Part shown: one piece after another, positions 2,264 through 23,459 of the stretch
Numbering within the stretch: position 1 is the stretch's first letter
How the letters are laid out: each line of letters starts with the position of its first letter
DNA from: Phycisphaerae bacterium
Lineage (GTDB): Bacteria > Planctomycetota > Phycisphaerae > UBA1845 > PWPN01
DNA: 26,811 bases
Assembly: GCA_026647385.1 (NCBI GenBank)
Contig: JAPKGY010000001.1
Span: forward strand, 1-26,811
Reading direction: 5' to 3'
Position numbers and translations under genes: made by a program
The notes under the pieces: model-generated
The model's database searches: none
Seen by the model: only the letters and a program-made list of their open reading frames with translations
Told to the model about the DNA's origin: nothing

Positions 2264-4747
2264 TTACAACAGGCACGCCCTTTTGCGTAAAAACCATTCG
2301 GCTGCGAGCAACACGATCAGCAGCGACAGGGTCCACCACCGGTCCCACAATGTCAGCGGCTCTCCGGTCAGCACCATGCCGACCTGCTTGCCGGGGATCA
2401 GGTTCACCAGTTGGTCGGCCTCGGCCAGGTCGAGGTACCTGCCGCCGGCTGACTGCAACGCGAGCGTGCGGAGCGATTCGCGATCCAGGTTCGTCGCCCG
2501 GTATTCGAGGTCGGACCGGCCGACGCTGATTTCGTGTCGAATGACGGCCGGCTCGACGTTCGGCCCGCCTGGCAGATCGATTCGCAGGCCGTACGTTCCG
2601 CCGTGCGCCGGGACCCATCGCCCGCGGTACCAGCCGGGGCGGTTGGGCTGCGTTTTCAGGGTGATCGTGGAGGCCGGCTCGTCCTCGCGTTGAATGGTGG
2701 CGGTGACTTCCTCGCCGCGGAGCGGCTGGTTGCGGTCGTCGAGCAGTCTGGCTTCGACGATCACCGGGTCGCCCGCGGCGTAGCGGCTGCGATCGGTCTG
2801 GATGAGCCCGCGTTTCTGGCCGGTGAAGAGTTTGCCCTCGACCAGATGCCGCAAAAGCTGCACCCAGAACCGATTGAAGCAGCGATCGCCCGCGCGTCGC
2901 CACCGCCAAGTCGAGTCCGACGCCAGAAAGCCGACCCGTCCCGAGCCGAGGAATTGCGTAGCCAACAGAACGTGCCCGCCATCCTGGCCTCGCATGCGCG
3001 GATTCGAGTCGCGCAGGAGCACCGTTGCGACGGGCTTGGCCCGCATGGCCGGGTAGTGCCAGTACCAGCCGGGCAGCATCGCCCAGACCTGAAGGTTCTC
3101 CGTGGTGGTGTCCGCCATGACCAGGACGGGGTGATCCGCCACCGGGGGCGGTACGGCGACCGGCCAGGGCGTCGTCTGGAAATAGCCGAGTTCGTTGAGA
3201 ATCAGTTCGGCCTCGCCGGGGTCAATCACCACGGGAAGCATCTCGACAAGAGATCGGGTGCCATCGCCGCGCAAGAACCTCGAGGTGTTCGTTCGGCCGG
3301 CGACGTAGAGCAGGGCGGCTCCGTTGTTGGCGACCATCGACTCGACGGTGGCCGTCCACGCCGGCGTGAAATCCTCCGGTTCGGGGTCCATCAGGATGAT
3401 ACAGTCGTAAGCGGTCAATTCCTCCGGGCGAGTCGGGAAGCGATCGATGATCGTCTTGCCGTCGCGGACCGCGGTCTCGTCGGCGGATTGCAGCCAGCAG
3501 CTCAGATCCATCGTCGCATCGCGGGTGAGGAGGCGCATGACGTAGCGGTAATCCCAGCTCGGTCCGCCCGCGACAAGAAGGACGCGCATTCGATTGTCGA
3601 GCGCACGGACGGTGATTTCCCGCTGGTTGTCGACGGTGAGTGTTTCGCCTTCGACCGGTTCGACGCGAACGATCAGGCGGGTCTGCCCCGGGTCGGCAAG
3701 CTGGTGCTTGAAAGCGATCGGTGCGACCCGTCCCGCGGCGTCGAGGGTAATCGTCTTGCGCTCGATCGGCTGCTCGTCGGCAGGCCCGCCTCGCAGCAGG
3801 GTGACGGTCAGCGATTGGCCGGCCAGACCCTGGACCTTCAATTGCACGGTGACCTGGAACGGGTCCTTGACGAAGACGTTGGCCGGCGCGTCGAGGGATG
3901 CGATCGCGGCATTACGCGGCTCACCCGGATCGCCCACGCCGACCGCGTAAATCGGCAGTTTGCGGGCGTGTGCGAACCTCGCGACGGTTTCGACGGGCTC
4001 GCCGCGATTGAATCGGCCATCCGACAACACGACGACGGCTGCGATCGGCGTATCGCCCTGCATCTCGACGGCCGACCGGACCGCTCGTCCCAGATCGGTG
4101 GCCTGCCCTTCGGCGCGGAGCAACGGGGCCAGCATCGTCGGAAGCGGCACCGGTTCGCCTTTGGGCTGCGAGGAGTCGGCCGCCGGAGAGGTGGTCGGAG
4201 GGGCGGCCTCGGGTTGCCCGTTGCGCGGGATGAACCCGACGGCGGACAGTTCGTCGGCGAATTCGTAGACCCGCACGGCGTTGTGCTTGGCTAATCGACT
4301 CAGCAAGGCGTTTGGCCCGCCGCCCAGCATTCGCTCCGCCAAATGCGAGCGGCTTAGACGGCGGGGATCGCCCCCGGCGGGCAACTCGGGCAACGGCGCG
4401 GACTGATCTTCGTTCGCGTAAAGGTCTCGCAGGCCCATGCTGGCGGACGTGTCCGCGAGAACGAGTGTCTCCGACTCGATCTCGCGATGAATGTACGTCG
4501 CCATCACCGGTTCGAGCCAGATGACGGCCAGGACGCAGATCACCGCGCAGCGCAAGGCGGTCAGGGTAATCCGTCGCCGGGGCGTCAGTCCGGACCGCTG
4601 TTCGCGGTGGTAGAGCAGAATGACCAGGCCCAACAGTCCGATCAACACCACGATGGAGGCGAGGGATGCCCATCCCTCCGGTACGGATGCGAACTCGAAC
4701 CGTCGTTCGATCGTGTCGACCGCCAGGATGTGGCCGAAAGCACTCAT
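2264..4747 (-). CDS. Membrane protein with vWA domain and class I glutamine-amidotransferase-like domain (~827 aa)
   Basis: MIDAS-type LVLADTSASM...TDLG...VVLSDGR; GATase-like VLLVAGGPSWDYRYV...YDCIILMD; N- and C-terminal TM helices, ending LLIVLLAAEWFLRKR. The start at 4747 forms an ATGA overlap with the upstream stop, so the ORF-track start at 4858 is probably too long. Confidence 0.85.
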   Translation of the reverse strand: MSAFGHILAVDTIERRFEFASVPEGWASLASIVVLIGLLGLVILLYHREQRSGLTPRRRITLTALRCAVICVLAVIWLEPVMATYIHREIESETLVLADTSASMGLRDLYANEDQSAPLPELPAGGDPRRLSRSHLAERMLGGGPNALLSRLAKHNAVRVYEFADELSAVGFIPRNGQPEAAPPTTSPAADSSQPKGEPVPLPTMLAPLLRAEGQATDLGRAVRSAVEMQGDTPIAAVVVLSDGRFNRGEPVETVARFAHARKLPIYAVGVGDPGEPRNAAIASLDAPANVFVKDPFQVTVQLKVQGLAGQSLTVTLLRGGPADEQPIERKTITLDAAGRVAPIAFKHQLADPGQTRLIVRVEPVEGETLTVDNQREITVRALDNRMRVLLVAGGPSWDYRYVMRLLTRDATMDLSCWLQSADETAVRDGKTIIDRFPTRPEELTAYDCIILMDPEPEDFTPAWTATVESMVANNGAALLYVAGRTNTSRFLRGDGTRSLVEMLPVVIDPGEAELILNELGYFQTTPWPVAVPPPVADHPVLVMADTTTENLQVWAMLPGWYWHYPAMRAKPVATVLLRDSNPRMRGQDGGHVLLATQFLGSGRVGFLASDSTWRWRRAGDRCFNRFWVQLLRHLVEGKLFTGQKRGLIQTDRSRYAAGDPVIVEARLLDDRNQPLRGEEVTATIQREDEPASTITLKTQPNRPGWYRGRWVPAHGGTYGLRIDLPGGPNVEPAVIRHEISVGRSDLEYRATNLDRESLRTLALQSAGGRYLDLAEADQLVNLIPGKQVGMVLTGEPLTLWDRWWTLSLLIVLLAAEWFLRKRACLL

Positions 4748-7065
4748 CGGTCGCCACCTCGCCAGAGGAGGCGGAGATTCCGCCCGCTTCCGAAGTACCA
4801 CCCCAGCGCCTGCTCGCTCATCAGCACCACGACGAGCAGGATCAGCGCGATCGGCCACAGTTCGCGGCGCACCTCCACGTCGCGCAGGGCGGCCAGGTCG
4901 CGACCGGTGACGTAGCTGAGGTTCAGGTTTGGCATGGATGCCCGCAGCGCCGCTTCATCCGCCCGGCCCAGGTCGCTCTCGCGCGTGTCGACATTGACGG
5001 CCATCGGCCGGGTGACCGTTCGGCCGGAGATTTCGCTGAGGTCGAAGCGATAGATGCCCGGTTCATCCGTTCGAGTCCAGGACAGCACGGTTTGGCCGGT
5101 GCCGGGGTCGGGCTGGGGTTCGATGCGCGAAGCCGGGTCGGCGGGAAAGGTCGGCGGCTTGAGCGTGGCCGGCGGCTGGTACCGTTCGCCGTCGAACGGG
5201 ATCACGATCGGCGCGCCCACAAGCTGCTGGCCGCCTGCCTCCGCGCGGCGGGCCAGGTATTGCACCAGTTCCATCGCCCAGACGACGTAGGCCGGCTGAT
5301 CGGGCAGGTTGTTCCACTCCTTGTCGGTGCTCGACGTGAACATCACGACGTGCCCGCGCCCCAGCGACTGATCGACGACGAGCGGGTCCTTGTCCGCACT
5401 GTTCAATCGGATGAGTATGCGAGCGGGTGTTCTTTCGTCAGCCGCGGCCGAGGCGGGCTGAGTGAGGGATGCGGCTTCGGCGGACTCGGCTTCGCCCGGT
5501 TCGCAGCGGAAACATTCGCGCACGCGCACGTTCTGAAGCAGACTCGCTTCTCCGGCCGCCAACCGCGCGGTCAGCGGATGGGCGGCGTCGATCTCGCCGA
5601 TGCCCCATCCGGCGGATTCCGCCGGGCAGATGGCGACCTGCCCGATCTTCGCCGGCAACAGTCCGGAACCCTCGCGATACAGCAGGCGGTTGTATGCGTC
5701 CGCGTCCACCTGATCGCCGAGAAAGATCGCCAGTCCGCCGCCGCTCCGCACGTAGGTTTCCAGGTGCTCGACAGCCGACTCGTTGAAGCGATAGACGTTC
5801 GCCAGAACGACAACCTGGTAATCCGACAGGTCGGCTCCCTCCAGGTCGTTTTCATCGATGACGGTGACCTCGTTGCCGCTGAACTGCGGGCCTTCGGGCT
5901 GGAGCGCGACCGTCAGCAGGAACGTTTCGTCCTCGTAAGGGTCGGGCGATTTCTCCCCATTGACGATCAGGGTGCGCAGCGCCCTGGCCACCGGAACGAC
6001 CAGGCGGCGCGCGTTGTCGACGGGCAGCCCGTCCGGCGGCAGTTCAACCGTCAATACGTCCAGGCCTTCATTGGGAAAGGTTGCGTCGATCGCCAGGTCA
6101 ACGTGGCTGCCGGCGTCAATCGAAGGAACCGATGTTGCCGGAACGGCCGCGTCGCCCACATAGGCCTCCAGAACCGTGGCGGCGCTCGGCGTCCGGCCGA
6201 AGTTCACGATGCGGGCGACATAACGGCCTTCGATCGTCGCGACCGATTGCGCCTGCCGCGGCTCGATGTCGGCGATCGCCAGGTTATCCGCCGGGTTGCC
6301 CACGTCGATGAGCACGACGTGCAGCGAACGGCCATCCCGGCCCCAGTCGGCAAGGGCGGCGGCCGGCGACGGATCGGGGCCGGCGGAGTCATGGCGTCCG
6401 ATCCAGTCGATGCGCTGAAAGTCGCTGATCACGTAAACCGTCGCATCCGCCCCCGCGGACAGGGCGTCGAGGCGTTGGCGCACGGCCGCCATCGCGGCGG
6501 GGAAGTTCCCGGGCCGAAAGGAAACCGGCGTCGACGCGAGATCCTCTTCGAACGTCTTCAGGTTGATCTCACCGATGCGCGGTTCGGACCGCAGAGGTTG
6601 ATCGGGCCGAGACGTGAGCAACACGGTTACGCCGTCGTCCGGCGAGGACTCGCGCCAGGTGCTCACGAGGTCGCGCAGGGTCGATTGGGCTCGACTGAAG
6701 ACCGTGCCGCTTTTCTCGAAGTCGCTTTCCGAGGCCTGGACCGGATCGCGCAGGCCCATGCTGAACGAGTCGTCGAGTATCACGATTCGCTCGGATTGCC
6801 CGCGCGTGCCCAGCGCGGCGGTCAGCGACTCGGGGCGAATGAACCACCGCGCGAGCATGACGCCCGCGACGGCCATGGCCAGGCAGCGCAAGGCCAGGAG
6901 GATGAGTTCCTCGATCCGGATGCGCCGGCGGTTCTCGCGGTCCGCCTGGAGCAGGAACTCCACCGCCGCCCAGCGGATCCGCCGGAATCGTCGCCGGTTC
7001 AGCAGGTGAATGAGGATGGGGATGGCCGCCGCCGCCGCACCGGCGTAGAACATCGCCGGCGTCAT
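4744..7065 (-). CDS. BatA N-terminal domain / vWA / GATase-like membrane protein (~773 aa)
   Basis: BatA signature AIPILIHLLNRRRFRRIRWAAVEFLL; MIDAS ILDDSFSM...VISDFQ; LSDYQVVVLANV; C-terminal TM helix RRELWPIALILL. The ORF-track extension to 7359 reads through a repeat hairpin and is spurious. Confidence 0.88.
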   Translation of the reverse strand: MTPAMFYAGAAAAAIPILIHLLNRRRFRRIRWAAVEFLLQADRENRRRIRIEELILLALRCLAMAVAGVMLARWFIRPESLTAALGTRGQSERIVILDDSFSMGLRDPVQASESDFEKSGTVFSRAQSTLRDLVSTWRESSPDDGVTVLLTSRPDQPLRSEPRIGEINLKTFEEDLASTPVSFRPGNFPAAMAAVRQRLDALSAGADATVYVISDFQRIDWIGRHDSAGPDPSPAAALADWGRDGRSLHVVLIDVGNPADNLAIADIEPRQAQSVATIEGRYVARIVNFGRTPSAATVLEAYVGDAAVPATSVPSIDAGSHVDLAIDATFPNEGLDVLTVELPPDGLPVDNARRLVVPVARALRTLIVNGEKSPDPYEDETFLLTVALQPEGPQFSGNEVTVIDENDLEGADLSDYQVVVLANVYRFNESAVEHLETYVRSGGGLAIFLGDQVDADAYNRLLYREGSGLLPAKIGQVAICPAESAGWGIGEIDAAHPLTARLAAGEASLLQNVRVRECFRCEPGEAESAEAASLTQPASAAADERTPARILIRLNSADKDPLVVDQSLGRGHVVMFTSSTDKEWNNLPDQPAYVVWAMELVQYLARRAEAGGQQLVGAPIVIPFDGERYQPPATLKPPTFPADPASRIEPQPDPGTGQTVLSWTRTDEPGIYRFDLSEISGRTVTRPMAVNVDTRESDLGRADEAALRASMPNLNLSYVTGRDLAALRDVEVRRELWPIALILLVVVLMSEQALGWYFGSGRNLRLLWRGGDR

Positions 7066-7150
7066 CAGCGCCGCAAGCGGAAGGCTCAACCATATGCCCC
7101 ATTCGGTTTTCACGGCCCCACCCACAAAGGCCACCGTCCCAACGCCGGCT

Positions 7151-7257
7151 GGAGTGGAGAACGGGGAATTGAGAATGGAGAAAGGACCCGCGTTCTCGGA
7201 CGAACCATCGGGCCGGCCATGAGCTTTCTCAATTCTCCGCTCTCCATTCTCCACTCC
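7151..7257. repeat. Heptamer (GGAGA[A/G]T) inverted-repeat hairpin, copy 1
   Basis: Arms 7151-7184 and 7224-7257 match at 28 of 34 positions as reverse complements. The 39-nt spacer has internal CCCG/CGGG and GTTC/GAAC pairing. It starts 10 nt after the DUF58 stop. Confidence 0.9.
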
Positions 7258-7267
7258 GCCTTCAGCT

Positions 7268-8185
7268 TCATCTTTTCGCCATCCGGTGCATCCGCCCAGC
7301 CAGGTACGCCGACAGAGCTGCGTCCGGTGGATCGTGTGTCGACAGCAGCACGTAATCAATCCGGCTGTCCACGCAGGCCGACCTCATCCGGGCGATGAAA
7401 TTCTCGACGATTCGCAGATAACTCGCCCTCAGCGACTGCGGGTCGGTCAGCAGTTGCACGTCGACCCGCTCGAGTCCCTCGAACAGCGTGTTCTCGGAGA
7501 ACGGAAACGTCAGCTCGTCGTGATCGAGCACGTGCAGGACAATCACGTCATGGCCGGCATGGCGCAATCGCTGCAATCCGGCGATCGTGGCTTCGACGTC
7601 GGTCAGCAGGTCGCTGATCAGCACGACGAGCCCCCGCCGGCGGAGCTGCTCCGCTATCTGCCCGAGCAGCATCTTCATGTCGGTGGCTTCAGCCGGCGGG
7701 TTCGCCTCGATGCGCTCGATCATCGTCTGAAGCTGAACGGTCCGGCTGGTCGGCGGGACCTGCTCGCGGATCGCCCGGTCGAAAAGGACCAGCCCGCAGG
7801 CGTCCTGCTGCATCATCAGCAGATAAATCAACGAGGCCGCCATCGTCGCGGCGTAGTCGTACTTGTTGCGCCATCCGCCGTGCTCGTGCTCGGGATAGGC
7901 CATCGAGCGCGAGCAGTCCAGCAGGACGTGTGTCCCAAGGTTCGTCTCTTCCTCGTACTGTTTGATGTACAGCCGGTCGCCGCGGGCAAACAGCCGCCAG
8001 TCGATATGTCGGATGTCGTCGCCGGGCGCGTACTCCCGGTGCGACGCGAACTCCACGCTGAAGCCCTGGTAGGGGCTGCGGTGCATCCCCGCGACGAACC
8101 CCTCCACGATCATCTTCGCCCGCAATTCGAGCCGGGAGATGCGCGTGAGGGTCTCAGGATTCAAATACTTTGCGTAGTCTGCCAT
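7268..8185 (-). CDS. DUF58 family protein (305 aa)
   Basis: [31 protein letters not shown]...[10 protein letters not shown]; vWA-like LLDCSRSM and LISDLL; adjacent to moxR. Confidence 0.93.
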
Positions 8186-9230
8186 CCTGGCTCAATGCCG
8201 ACTCGTTCGGCGGCGTGAGGTTCAACAACTCGTCGATGATCCGATCGGCCGAGTACCCCTGGGCCTCGGCGGAGTAGGTGGTGATGATGCGGTGCCGGAG
8301 CACGGGGTGCGCGACCGCCCGCACGTCCTCGACGGACGCGTGGTACTGCCCGTGGAGCACCGCCCGGGCCTTGGCCGCCTGCACGAGGAACTGCACGGCC
8401 CGCGGGCCCGCGCCCCACTTGATCATCTGCCGGGTGATCGGCGGCGCCGTCGGCTCGTCAGGCCGGGTCCGGCGTACAATGTCCAGCGCATGCGCAACTA
8501 CCGGTCGGGCGATCGGAACCTTCCGCACCAGGTCCTGCAGCCGCAGGACCTGCCCCGCGTCCAGCACAGGCGGGATGGATTCCCGCGCAGCCGCGATATC
8601 GACCAGCGTCGTCTCCGCGATTCGAAGCTCCTCGTCGTAACTCGGATAGCCGACGAAGACCTTGTACATGAACCGGTCCTGCTGGGCTTCGGGAAGCGGG
8701 TACGTCCCCTCCTGCTCGATGGGGTTCTGGGTGGCCAAGACGAAAAACGGCTCGTCCAGCGGGTGCCGTTGCCCGCCCACCGTCACCTGTCGCTCCTGCA
8801 TCGCCTCGAGCAGGGCGGCCTGGGTTTTGGGCGGCGTGCGGTTGATTTCGTCCGCCAGGACCACGTTTGCGAATACCGGCCCGCGCAGGAACCTGAACGA
8901 TCGCGAACCGGTGGCTTTGTCTTCCTGGATGACCTCCGTGCCGGTGATGTCCGACGGCATGAGGTCGGGTGTGAACTGGATGCGCGAGAACGTCAGGTGA
9001 AGCGACCGGGCGAGCGTCGAGATCATCAGCGTTTTGGCCAGGCCGGGCACGCCTTCGAGAATGACGTGGCCGCCGGCGAACAGCGCGGTCATCAACTCCT
9101 CGAGCACCCGGTCCTGCCCGACGATCACCTTGCTTAACTCCGACCGGATCCGCTCGTTGGCCGACCGAAGCTGCTCGACAGCCGCCAGATCGTCCGATCC
9201 CGCTGGAATGGGTGTGTCACTGTTCGGCAT
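8154..9230 (-). CDS. moxR: MoxR family AAA+ ATPase (~358 aa)
   Basis: Walker [11 protein letters not shown]; [15 protein letters not shown]; Walker [23 protein letters not shown]; [26 protein letters not shown] at 9230 follows AAAGGGGG. Confidence 0.96.
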
Positions 9231-9281
9231 CAAACCCCCTTTCGCCTCAATGTTCGTGCGATGTTGACGAGCCGCGGGCTT

Positions 9282-9345
9282 CCCTTGACACGACGCGGGC
9301 ATACGCCCGCCCGCAGCCGCCTTGCGGCGAGCCGCGTGTCAAGGG
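9282..9345 (-). other. Compact three-way-junction structure upstream of moxR (candidate cis-regulatory RNA or REP-like element)
   Basis: Perfect 11-bp outer stem CCCTTGACACG/CGTGTCAAGGG encloses two hairpins: CGCC-GCAA-GGCG (GNRA loop on the minus strand) and GCGGGC-GTAT-GCCCGC. Confidence 0.5.
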
Positions 9346-9452
9346 CTTCAGGTCGCCGCGGGGAGCCGCGCGGCCTTTCGTTTCGATCGGCGCCCCGGGG
9401 ATTGCCCGCGGTCATAGGGTCATCGGTCCGCCGCAATCGCGAACGGGCCGGC

Positions 9453-9549
9453 TGAGACTCCAGAATGGACAATTGAGAAAGGTTCGCCCGGTCCGGAAGT
9501 TCCGCTCGCATTTGTAGGGCCGTTCTCAATTCTCCACTCTCCATTCGCC
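9453..9549. repeat. Heptamer inverted-repeat hairpin, copy 2
   Basis: Left units TGAGACT CCAGAAT GGACAAT TGAGAAA GG. Right units (reverse complement) GGCGAAT GGAGAGT GGAGAAT TGAGAAC GG. It starts 17 nt after the stop at 9567. Confidence 0.85.
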
Positions 9550-9566
9550 CGCGGTTTCCCGTCGGT

Positions 9567-10679
9567 CTACCGTTGCAGAATCGGCAGATACCCGTACGGC
9601 ATCTGCAGGATGGTCAACGCGATGGCCGTCCCGTACACCTTGCCCACCGCGTCGCCGTCCCACGATCCATCGCTGTTTTGGGCGGTCAGCAGCCAATCCC
9701 GCATGGTCGGGAAATACCAGTTCCAGTTCTCCTCTCCGCTCAGCCACATGACCTGGGCCATGTAGAAGTGAGCGTAATAGTAGTGCCCCCAGGTTCCGGA
9801 GCTGCGCCCGCCCCGCCCGATGTGGTCTTTGACGAACTTCAGCGATTTGACCGCTTGCGGGTGATCGTATTTCCCCGCGTTGTACCAGCAGGCGACAGCC
9901 GCCGCCGTGATCGGAGGGCGCGGGCCGCCTTGGCGATCCGCCCGGTAAGTGATTCCGCCGTCCGGCAGCGAGGATTTGTCCAGGTACCCCAGCGCCCGGT
10001 CGATCGTCTGTTTGGGCACCGACACCCCCGCGTTCCGGGCGGCACGCAGGCCCTGCAACTGGGTGATCGTCACCGACCCCTCGTCCGAACGCGAATCCGG
10101 TGTGTACAGCCAGCCTCCCAGATCGCTCTGGCTCCGGGCGGTCAGGGCAACCGCCTTCTGCAGCACGGTGTGGATCTGCTTGCGTTTGTCCGGGTCGGAT
10201 TCCATGCCGTGCAGTTCGCCCAGCACGAGCATGCTGAAGCCGTGGCCGTACATCGAGCGGCTTTCCTCCTCGATGCGCGAGATCAGGCCTTCCGAATCGA
10301 CGCACCGCAGGAGCAGATTGACCGCCCGGCTCACCTGCGGCGCGTACCTGCCTTCCGTCATCGTGTTGCCGTTGGCCATCAGGGCGAACGTGGCCAGCGC
10401 CGTCATCGCGACCGGGTAGTATCCCATATCCCCCTGGCTTCGCCATGAGCCCTCGCGACTCTGCGTGCGAGCCAGGAATTCGAGTCCGCGATCGATCGCC
10501 TGCTGCGTCTCCGGAGTGATCAGCGGCGGCAGCGGCGGCGCGATCCGCGCCTCGCTCTGGGCGGACGAACGTGTCGGTCCCATCAGCGCGATCACCATCG
10601 CCAATCCTAAGGCGGATCGCCTTTTTGTGGTCCGCAACCAAAGAGGAACCCTTGGCGCAGACCGGCGCGCAAATCGCAT
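9567..10679 (-). CDS. Prenyltransferase/squalene oxidase repeat (alpha-alpha barrel) protein with signal peptide (~370 aa)
   Basis: QW-like repeats QSREGSW, QSDLGGW, SSLPDGG and QNSDGSW; AIDRGLEFLA; hydrophobic N-terminus RRSALGLAMVIALMGPTRSSA. ATG at 10679 follows GAAGGA. The ORF-track extension (MESGEWRMENG) is translated repeat DNA. Confidence 0.88.
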   Translation of the reverse strand: MRFARRSAPRVPLWLRTTKRRSALGLAMVIALMGPTRSSAQSEARIAPPLPPLITPETQQAIDRGLEFLARTQSREGSWRSQGDMGYYPVAMTALATFALMANGNTMTEGRYAPQVSRAVNLLLRCVDSEGLISRIEEESRSMYGHGFSMLVLGELHGMESDPDKRKQIHTVLQKAVALTARSQSDLGGWLYTPDSRSDEGSVTITQLQGLRAARNAGVSVPKQTIDRALGYLDKSSLPDGGITYRADRQGGPRPPITAAAVACWYNAGKYDHPQAVKSLKFVKDHIGRGGRSSGTWGHYYYAHFYMAQVMWLSGEENWNWYFPTMRDWLLTAQNSDGSWDGDAVGKVYGTAIALTILQMPYGYLPILQR

Positions 10680-10750
10680 CGATCCTTCGCCGCGAGGTTC
10701 CAACGCGTGCAATCGAGTCATCAATGGTTGCGGCCCGCGGAACAGGGCGA

Positions 10751-10868
10751 GCAAAGTTGGGAATGGAGAACGGAGAATAGAGAAAGGGTTCCCCGGTTCG
10801 CGGGTCGATCTCGCGCAGGGAGAACCATTCTCCATTCTCCACTCTCCACTCTCCACTTTCGACTCTCC
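10751..10868. repeat. Heptamer inverted-repeat hairpin, copy 3
   Basis: Left GCAAAGT TGGGAAT GGAGAAC GGAGAAT AGAGAAA GGGTTCCCC. Right (reverse complement) GGAGAGT CGAAAGT GGAGAGT GGAGAGT GGAGAAT GGAGAAT GGTTCTCCC. Confidence 0.9.
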
Positions 10869-10899
10869 TGCTCGATTCCGTCCGTGCGGGTCCGCGCTC

Positions 10900-11523
10900 T
10901 CACGGGTCCTCTCGTTTCCTCGCCTGTGTCTCGATCGGCCTTTGCGTTCGCAGGTGAATCAATCTTTCCCGGGTGAAGGATTCCGGCCGATCCCGTAACT
11001 GCCGCCGGGCGAATTCATCGAAGAACGCCTCCTCGGGCGGCAGGTCGTTGTCTGGATCATAGAACTTCAATGCCTCTTCGACGCAGGTGCCCGCCAGAAG
11101 TTCCCATTCGCGGGCCGCCCCGCGGTCGGCTGTCCCGCTCGCCCAGGCCCGAAGCTGCCGGGCTTTCTCCCCCAGCATCGCCTCCAGCGTCAGCCAGCCG
11201 GCTACGTCGATCGCCCGCGACGGCTCCCCCGTGGGGTTGACCGGCGGCGCCGGGGGCACCGGTGATTCTTCCAGCGTCACGAACCGGGCCAGTCGCGGGT
11301 CGCCGGCCTTCGGGTCGATGCCGGCGAAGCGCAGCACGGTCACCTCCCCGCACGAACGACAGGTGACCGGCAGCGCCAGGATCGGCCCGGCGGCCGACGG
11401 CTCGATCGCTCCGGTCTCCGGGGCCAGGGGCCCGTTCCCACATCGCCCGCACCGCTTCGCCCAAACGACCAACTGGGCCTCGGTCAGACTGTGAATCGCC
11501 AAAACGGCTGGAGAGGTGCCCAT
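10900..11523 (-). CDS. Hypothetical protein with N-terminal zinc-ribbon (2x CxxC), ~207 aa
   Basis: CGRC...CRSC pairs, Pro-rich linker and a helical C-terminal half (IDVAGWLTL...CVEEALKFY). AGGA precedes ATG 11523. Confidence 0.7.
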   Translation of the reverse strand: MGTSPAVLAIHSLTEAQLVVWAKRCGRCGNGPLAPETGAIEPSAAGPILALPVTCRSCGEVTVLRFAGIDPKAGDPRLARFVTLEESPVPPAPPVNPTGEPSRAIDVAGWLTLEAMLGEKARQLRAWASGTADRGAAREWELLAGTCVEEALKFYDPDNDLPPEEAFFDEFARRQLRDRPESFTRERLIHLRTQRPIETQARKREDP

Positions 11524-23386: not shown

Positions 23387-23459
23387 GCGGGCGTAGCTCA
23401 ATTGGTAGAGCATCAGCCTTCCAAGCTGAATGTTGCGAGTTCGAGCCTCGTCGCCCGCT
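23387..23459 (+). tRNA. tRNA-Gly (anticodon TCC), CCA end not encoded
   Basis: Acceptor stem GCGGGCG/CGCCCGC; D arm GCTC-AATTGGTA-GAGC; anticodon arm TCAGC-CTTCCAA-GCTGA; T arm GCGAG-TTCGAGC-CTCGT; discriminator T followed by TTT. Confidence 0.97.

Follow-up and report, generated by a model that had tools for sequence, protein, structure and literature searches.

Heptamer-armed hairpins at the gene junctions of a Phycisphaerae operon belong to a dispersed insert family and may act at the RNA level

Introduction

Why would the gene junctions of a single bacterial operon carry hairpins built from inverted heptamer repeats? The question is raised by a stretch of 26,811 nucleotides from a Phycisphaerae bacterium (GenBank assembly GCA_026647385.1, contig JAPKGY010000001.1, positions 1 to 26,811), which we call the window. 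The window is the entire 26.8-kb contig of a fragmented metagenome-assembled genome (MAG). On its minus strand, a MoxR/Bat-type operon contains three such hairpins: element 1 (7151..7257), element 2 (9453..9549) and element 3 (10751..10868).

The feature is real and non-random. The three elements are part of a family of about 36 hairpin-insert loci in this genome. Our favoured reading, to which we give about even chances, is that they are gene-less members of this family that resemble intervening sequences (IVSs) and act at the RNA level.

A preliminary description of the same DNA, made from the letters alone, had put the elements forward as an undescribed system. This is too strong: inverted heptamer pairs have been published for Xanthomonas (PMC4692102) and heptamers for the IVS of Coxiella (PMC4990558). 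The elements belong to a known, functionally unexplained class, the inverted pairs of heptamer simple sequence repeats (SSRs). What is new is the phylum and the repeat unit.

Three inverted heptamer arrays behind stop codons

Element 1 lies between the genes for a DUF58 protein and a BatA-like membrane protein. A repeat search finds two arms of 34 nt (7151-7184 and 7224-7257) that are 82% complementary and enclose a loop of 39 nt (7185-7223); 43 nt separate the innermost GAGAA and TTCTC. Element 2 lies between a prenyltransferase-fold gene and the MoxR gene. Its core arms of 21 nt (9462-9482 and 9520-9540) are 86% complementary around a loop of 37 nt, and the inner distance is again 43 nt. Element 3 separates the gene of a 200-aa protein from the prenyltransferase-fold gene. 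Here arms of 42 nt (10753-10794 and 10818-10859) are 76% complementary with 23 nt between them, and the right array, of about six units, extends to 10868.

Tandem Repeats Finder (TRF) reports four period-7 arrays of 3.3-6.3 copies, all in elements 1 and 3 and the only ones in the window: 7155-7186, 7234-7256, 10761-10784 and 10825-10868 (the last with 6.3 copies). Our own phase-7 scan, and not TRF, detected the right arm of element 2. Hence repeat search, TRF and our own scans agree with the preliminary description on where the three elements lie. Its distances of 10, 17 and 31 nt after minus-strand stop codons are also correct: element 1 ends at 7257 and the DUF58 stop is at 7268-7270, element 2 ends at 9549 and the stop of the prenyltransferase-fold gene is at 9567-9569, and element 3 ends at 10868 and the stop of the 200-aa gene is at 10900-10902. 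As had been claimed, TRF and our scans find no further heptamer arm anywhere in the window, and none at the overlapping MoxR/DUF58 (8154-8185) and BatA-like/VWA-like (about 4744-4747) junctions.

The 7-nt phase and the inverted geometry are maintained though the units vary, just as described. With 23-43 nt, the loops are too short for any open reading frame (ORF), which had been noted as well. The spacers had also been called partly self-pairing. This does not hold in general: compared with shuffled sequences, 11 loops have a mean z of 0.1, and only element 3 stands out (z -2.5). No Rfam family matches the hairpin elements in a search of the window. Metagenome contigs of the strain show the three hairpins unchanged; the sole exception, from one run, is an A>G at position 7172.

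A family of intergenic arms across the genome

A phase-7 scan of the MAG yields 51 arms of the GGAGAAT type in about 36 loci. Placement is not random with respect to genes. The preliminary description had seen the three elements between genes and close to upstream stops, and the family follows suit: 49 of the 51 arms lie outside the coding sequences (CDS) that we called, though about 80% of the genome is coding. In paired copies the distance ranges from -6 to 43 nt on the side of the upstream stop and from 16 to 686 nt on that of the next start. The median hairpin is about 25-32 nt away from the upstream stop, compared to about 58 nt from the next start, and many arms start 7-12 nt past the stop codon.

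The arms also share their inward ends, GGAGAAAGG / CCTTTCTCC. Forward arms tend to finish on GGAGAAAGG and reverse arms tend to start with CCTTTCTC. Outside this genome, the pattern GAGAA-NN-GAGAA / gap / TTCTC-NN-TTCTC matches in 6 of 31 related genomes, while the reversed control matches in none. Hairpins were searched with +1/-1 scoring and a shuffle control; a harsher mismatch penalty gave just 12 hairpins.

On C221 two arms lie far apart, and we considered the DNA between them as a possible cargo. It holds an ordinary aldehyde dehydrogenase gene, hence the arms are two separate half-elements.

The genome contains other heptamer families, of the GAATGAC/GAATGTC and CAGGAGT/CAGGAGA types, which have no G runs. 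Octamer arrays of (TTTTGACG)n are abundant and a second octamer, (AGGCACAG)n, is also present; examples of octamer arrays lie at C46:1709-1744, C47:86-136 and C86:6441-6472 (G000, our label for this genome). At a TRF score of at least 50, period-8 arrays number 42 in the genome and period-7 arrays 16.

Two simple ideas about the arms are of limited reach. The units of the three elements contain GG only and thus no GGG tract for a three-tetrad G-quadruplex. A two-tetrad G-quadruplex made from the GG runs is unlikely to be general, because the sister families have no G runs. Mimicry of Shine-Dalgarno (SD) and anti-SD sequences by the arms (GGAG / CUCC) fits the GGAGAAT family alone.

Conserved arms enclose a loop of fixed length

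The arms are conserved. Element 2 has an orthologue on L065, a metagenome contig with 91% protein identity. Between the two copies, 50 of 54 arm positions are identical and the variant units follow in the same order, whereas 4-fold degenerate sites of the flanking genes are only 56-65% identical. The loop behaves differently. With 21 of 42 positions identical, it is neutral in sequence.

Loop length, in contrast to loop sequence, is kept. Of 11 copies, among them orthologues from two other genomes, 8 have an inner GAGAA-TTCTC distance of 42-43 nt; another two relatives have 42 and 44 nt. The loops have a genomic base composition (G+C 0.54-0.71), and their mutual similarity is faintly above that of shuffled sequences. 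Conserved arms around a fixed-length loop of free sequence argue for a function or a recognition step, and against plain slippage or a young burst of MITEs (miniature inverted-repeat transposable elements). Loops that are barely more alike than shuffled sequences are also not what defines a MITE. It had been suggested that selection acts on the structure and that the arrays are not a product of plain slippage. This needs amending, as what is seen to be conserved is the sequence of the arms itself.

Could the arrays have grown in place? An SD-like GGAGAA would expand by slippage, and the opposite arm would arise, and stay complementary, by intrastrand template switching, with neither mobility nor function. 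Unit numbers that differ between arms and between copies fit this scenario, as does the heptamer copy number that differs among Coxiella strains (PMC4990558). So does one comparison with a congener, G001, at locus C55, where the G001 ribosome binding site (RBS) GGAGAACC stands at the place of the first array unit. Yet growth in place leaves four observations unexplained: a shared inner terminus and a 42-43-nt loop in at least 10 loci, an unchanged order of variant units between orthologues, different unit families at one junction in two congeneric species, and an identical design around PF05635 genes. We think it quite improbable.

The C55 comparison deserves a closer look for another reason. 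The 32-nt spacer of G001 holds GGAGAACC as the RBS of the downstream gene, and in this genome the first array unit at that position is GGAGAAC (G000 C55:820-1000 vs G001 C345:2920-2990). Judged from these two sequences, there are hints that GGAGAAT arrays may start at, or target, SD-like motifs.

Orthologous junctions are empty, hairpin-filled or gene-filled

The gene order of the operon is kept in about 20 relatives, and the preliminary description had proposed to compare orthologous junctions for empty and ORF-filled alleles. Both exist.

At the DUF58/BatA-like junction, G001 carries a hairpin of the GGAGAAT family (locus L006); element 1 is thus shared by the two congeners. In other genera, hairpins of GAGAGAT, CCAATGA, GCCGATT/TCCGATT, GAATGAT and other units occupy this junction. 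In eight relatives the spacer is only 0-17 nt long. A further relative, G002, has a spacer of 838 nt in which a GxxExxY gene (L012:941-1330, minus strand; TIGR04256, 3.5e-40) lies between hairpins.

The prenyltransferase/MoxR junction varies as well. L065 carries the orthologue of element 2, G001 is without the right arm, and other genera have arrays of other units or spacers of 31-50 nt.

Element 3 has an empty counterpart in the congener. In G001 the two genes overlap by an ATGA stop/start of 4 nt, while in this genome the spacer is 178 nt (window 10679-10902 vs L144:60-200). The 10-mer GATGACTCGA of the G001 overlap survives here at 10726-10717, downstream of element 3. Hence about 180 nt were added between stop and start. 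The one candidate for a target-site duplication at this junction is a possible 3-nt repeat of TGA.

We compared four further family loci with G001. C55 and C40 are empty there (spacers of 32 and 12 nt), and the C216 junction is occupied by a hairpin whose units come from another heptamer family (CTGACAA/TTGTCAG). At the fourth locus synteny is lost. Junctions that are empty, filled with the same unit or filled with another unit show that turnover within the genus is high and that some junctions have been occupied repeatedly.

Alternatively, the inserts could be selfish or neutral repetitive DNA, similar to MITEs or to the repetitive extragenic palindromes (REP/REPIN), that spreads or persists solely because it is tolerated after stop codons and has no role for the host or its mRNA. 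The presence of the inserts is patchy and lineage-specific, there are empty sites in the congener, and the operon works without inserts in the relatives with junctions of 0-17 nt. The arms speak against it: in the one orthologous pair, they are 93% identical compared to about 60% at neutral sites, and the unit order is kept. No near-identical copies exist and loops are faintly similar at most, therefore there has been no recent burst. A clear target-site duplication is also missing at the element 3 junction.

REP/REPIN elements come with RAYT transposases (PMC3116915). Like the hairpins described here, they are multicopy, extragenic, imperfect palindromes, often placed past the stops of co-directional or convergent genes, and their arms are better conserved than the spacer. 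Unlike the hairpins, REP arms are not tandem heptamers, and the copies in this genome are far from identical. Nor do the hairpins go with the genome's Y1 (RAYT/IS200-type) transposase genes: all three PF01797 matches (C994, C761 and C756) are flanked by unrelated repeats of 27-53 nt. All in all, we consider a purely selfish or neutral origin possible but unlikely.

On the Y1 transposase genes themselves we note that C761:1150-1700 and C756:100-330 adjoin long tandem repeats, whose units measure about 53 and about 27 nt.

The same design around PF05635 and GxxExxY genes

The preliminary description had mentioned similar heptamer arms around small genes for four-helix-bundle proteins (23S-IVS/Avd-like) in other genomes. 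For this clade, the statement holds. Inverted arms (score of at least 16) surround 22 of 29 PF05635 loci of relatives but only 2 of 218 small control genes. The best arm period is 7 in 20 of 24.

This genome has four PF05635 matches (on C71, C516, C354 and C743), and two of them are such copies. The intact gene on C71 has inverted CAGGAGA arrays on both sides, and the gene on C516 is flanked by inverted AATGTCT/TAATGAC arrays. Both array types also occur without a gene in the same genome, about 14 times for CAGGAGA and about 27 times for AATGTCT/TAATGAC.

The other two matches, C354:5030-5194 and C743:2300-2431, span profile positions 1-55 and 61-104; the former lies in an open frame of 263 aa. 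Since only a part of the profile is covered, these two are probably truncated or decayed.

GxxExxY genes show a related arrangement. In the relatives (L227-L256), most lie between inverted arrays with a period of 8-9 (AACCACGAAG-type), often with one complete hairpin on each side of the gene. The searchable literature contains no mention of 'GxxExxY', and in the literature that we searched no paper ties heptamer-armed hairpins to PF05635 or GxxExxY genes.

A published relative of these cassettes is found in ribosomal RNA. In Coxiella burnetii, the helix-45 IVS has tandem GACAGAT heptamers beside an RNase III site, in a copy number that varies between strains. RNase III cuts the heptamer-containing stem, and the IVS carries an S23p ORF (PMC4990558). 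The 23S rRNA IVSs of Coxiella and Leptospira resemble our elements in their long stem, formed by terminal inverted repeats that contain heptamers. In addition, their loop cargo is a PF05635 four-helix-bundle ORF, and the PF05635 genes of this clade sit in the same type of hairpin. In contrast to the IVSs, the three elements lie between protein genes in an mRNA operon and have no ORF.

One may go further and regard the arms as the sequence-specific recognition modules of a widespread and as yet undescribed cassette system, in which junctions serve as sockets that are empty, like the three hairpins, or filled with a small gene (PF05635 four-helix-bundle genes with period 7, GxxExxY nuclease-fold genes with period 8-9). 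A factor acting in trans, perhaps an Avd-like four-helix-bundle oligomer or a double-strand RNase, would read the arms at their spacing of 42-43 nt and take care of installing, maintaining or processing the cassette. We regard this as unlikely.

The transcript folds better than its complement

In all three elements the sense RNA is more stable than the antisense RNA. Element 1 folds with -64.2 kcal/mol (z -6.4; all fold z-scores are against dinucleotide shuffles), compared to -58.5 for its antisense strand. Element 3 folds with -70.8 kcal/mol (z -9.2), and element 2 is the weakest hairpin of the three (-39.8 kcal/mol, z -2.0).

The advantage extends beyond the operon. Among 27 repeat-armed hairpins located between co-directional genes, 20 fold better as sense RNA, and the mean difference is -3.7 kcal/mol (Wilcoxon p=0.0017). 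For control co-directional spacers the sense-antisense difference is -0.98 kcal/mol (Mann-Whitney p=0.014). Within the GGAGAAT family all copies agree (10/10). Single arms point the same way: in tandem contexts, a hand count finds the purine-rich arm on the sense strand in 12 of 16 cases.

Alternatively, the elements could act as DNA. The arms would be arrays of sites for a sequence-specific binding protein or would form cruciforms (for instance in nucleoid organisation, replication or recombination), and the spacer would set the geometry. In favour of this, it is the arm sequence that is kept and not a compensated pairing, and the inner units stand at a fixed distance; three heptamers would span two helical turns, and for Nostoc a role of heptamer repeats in protein binding has been proposed (bioRxiv 10.1101/2022.06.06.494920). 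But the transcript is favoured by the better folding of the sense strand and by the 12:4 excess of single arms with the purine-rich arm on that strand, and a position past stop codons is easier to tie to transcription or translation. Moreover, no candidate binding protein is tied to the family. A role at the DNA level therefore seems to us a slim prospect.

Among the roles for RNA, termination is the most obvious to consider. Strong stems directly downstream of stop codons could serve as intrinsic terminators or attenuators and thereby adjust how strongly the operon genes are expressed relative to one another. However, on the minus strand none of the three stems has a T/U run behind it, and a terminator scan gave no match at the elements. 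The stems are also A/U-rich and far longer than terminator stems, and they are missing from the same junctions in relatives. We consider terminators very improbable. This affects the preliminary description, which had listed mRNA processing, stabilising and attenuation signals that set subunit stoichiometry. A role at the RNA level receives moderate support from the sense folding advantage, while nothing points to attenuation or to a control of stoichiometry, and U-tract terminators were looked for and not found.

A gene for RNase III (C890:1168-1812) is present in this genome. Assembled metagenome contigs have no ends or joints at the hairpins.

Relation to other heptamer repeats

The closest published elements are the GGGAATC heptamer SSRs of Xanthomonas (Rehm et al. 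2015; PMC4692102). They are 89-93% intergenic, mostly between co-directional genes, and 70-75 convergent array pairs are able to form stem-loops. Their mean distance is 28 nt to the upstream ORF, compared to 160 nt to the downstream ORF. The same work, which also covers heptamer SSRs of Nostoc, studied them as G-quadruplex formers. Our elements share with them the tandem, very similar, purine-rich 7-nt units, the convergent pairs, the intergenic placement and the proximity to the upstream ORF. They differ in phylum (Planctomycetota) and in the unit, which has a GGG tract in Xanthomonas and only GG in GGAGAAT. A fixed loop of 42-43 nt, arm conservation relative to neutral sites, a sense-RNA bias and a link to PF05635 are not part of that work.

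The preliminary description had drawn an analogy to the STRR heptamers of filamentous cyanobacteria. Intergenic heptamers of the TAACTGA type occur in Beggiatoaceae, Cyanobacteria and Bacteroidetes and have no established function (PMC4679880). In Beggiatoa they are direct arrays, mostly just upstream of start codons, with one inverted case in 170 (PMC4679880). The STRR/TAACTGA repeats resemble our elements in their period of 7 nt, in being strictly intergenic and in forming lineage-specific unit families. Yet they are mostly direct arrays before starts, whereas ours are inverted pairs past stops. Direct heptamer arrays of Nostoc likewise have no established role. The analogy is one of form, as the organism is a planctomycete.

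Genome and operon

The source MAG comprises 4.67 Mb in 1008 contigs, with 64% G+C and 84% completeness. Its nearest relatives are uncultured Phycisphaerae and Planctomycetota MAGs, and the strain is found repeatedly in activated-sludge and bioreactor metagenomes from several studies.

On the minus strand, the gene order is 200-aa protein, prenyltransferase-fold protein, MoxR, DUF58, BatA-like and further vWA-type genes. The first gene of this stretch (10900..11502, minus strand, about 200 aa) was recognised as a coding frame by its third-position G+C (GC3) and codon score. It has no Pfam or NCBIfam match, and orthologues exist in relatives. The second (9567..10721, minus strand) encodes a secreted protein with a prenyltransferase/squalene-cyclase fold (PF13243, 6e-11; TIGR01787, weak match). 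It probably starts at ATG 10721, with ATG 10679 as the alternative, because GATGACTCGA is conserved and common to the congener. The protein seems to gain about 38 N-terminal residues if the conserved ATG 10721 is used instead of ATG 10679.

The MoxR-type AAA+ ATPase gene (8154..9232, minus strand; PF07726 AAA_3, 6e-65, and AAA_lid_2) starts at ATG 9232, and AAAGGGGG lies upstream. It is followed by the DUF58 (vWA-like) gene (7268..8185, minus strand; PF01882, 6e-45), whose stop codon is 7268-7270. The BatA-like membrane protein is encoded at 4744..7113 on the minus strand, as judged from the BatA N-terminal domain (PF07584, 2e-13) and frame analysis. The PF07584 match begins near residue 101 of an over-long ORF, and the gene probably starts at GTG 7113, 37 nt past the hairpin of element 1.

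An unrelated hairpin (CCCTTGACACG ... CGTGTCAAGGG) lies at 9276-9350, between element 2 and the MoxR start. Its 11-mer has about 18 genome copies per orientation and very high contig depth in metagenomes, and the segment is not present in the orthologous spacers of L065 and G001. Hence it belongs to another dispersed repeat family. A tRNA gene on the plus strand (23387-23459) is the sole Rfam match in the window.

Discussion

How might gene-less inserts act on RNA? Each hairpin consists of two inverted GGAGAAT-like arrays around a 42-43-nt loop of free sequence, a design that equals that of the cassettes around the clade's PF05635 genes and of the ORF-bearing 23S rRNA IVSs. Individual lineages acquired the inserts on their own, at the junctions of cistrons and shortly past the upstream stop. 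As a portion of the operon mRNA, the inserts would then fold into imperfect stems of 20-40 bp. Most likely, we infer, the stem acts on RNA, either as a double-strand processing site of the RNase III type or as a barrier to 3' exonucleases. In this way the insert could sit between cistrons without polar damage, and the stem may uncouple the decay or the translation of the flanking genes.

Several observations weigh against this interpretation. A clearly paired partner arm is found at only 10 of the 36 family loci; the other 26 hold single or decayed arms. Flanking genes are tandem at 24 loci, convergent at 6 and divergent at 3, which is near the baseline for spacers of this size (64/16/20% tandem/convergent/divergent); divergent (promoter) gaps are therefore no more than mildly depleted. 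Both results also count in favour of selfish DNA. Mismatches in the stems do not favour RNA pairing clearly: G.U and A.C mismatches on the sense strand number 26:18, a difference without significance, and among the mismatches transversions are commoner than transitions. Nor would one expect a plain RNA hairpin to combine a fixed loop length with arms conserved in sequence. The sequencing runs that contain the strain provide contigs only, and what looks like the best 'RNA' run probably consists of DNA.

The tie to IVSs and cassettes is strained at two further points. The 84%-complete genome and 30 loci of relatives contain no PF05635 gene with GGAGAAT arms. Thus the tie between hairpins and cassettes consists of architecture and junction behaviour, not of sequence. 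No 23S rRNA is found in this assembly, and the 23S rRNAs of the relatives G022 and G005 (two complete genes) are uninterrupted.

Many bacterial genomes have an excess of tandem heptamers, for which no function is established. PF05635, the large family of 'intervening-sequence proteins', is equally unexplained. If the arms were indeed the recognition modules of a cassette system, the IVSs of 23S rRNA, the unexplained heptamer repeats and the hairpins in operons would be products of one mechanism. The locus is a natural series for the study of both heptamer repeats and PF05635: in close relatives, junctions of the same operon are empty, filled with hairpins of several units or filled with a gene. 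It also offers three quantitative handles: the arms are more conserved than neutral sites, the loop is neutral in sequence but fixed in length, and the sense strand folds better.

If the stems are processing sites, they would represent a common, overlooked way to segment polycistronic mRNAs and to tolerate insertions in operons. If they are not, the family would be a well-characterised case of selfish hairpins with fast turnover.

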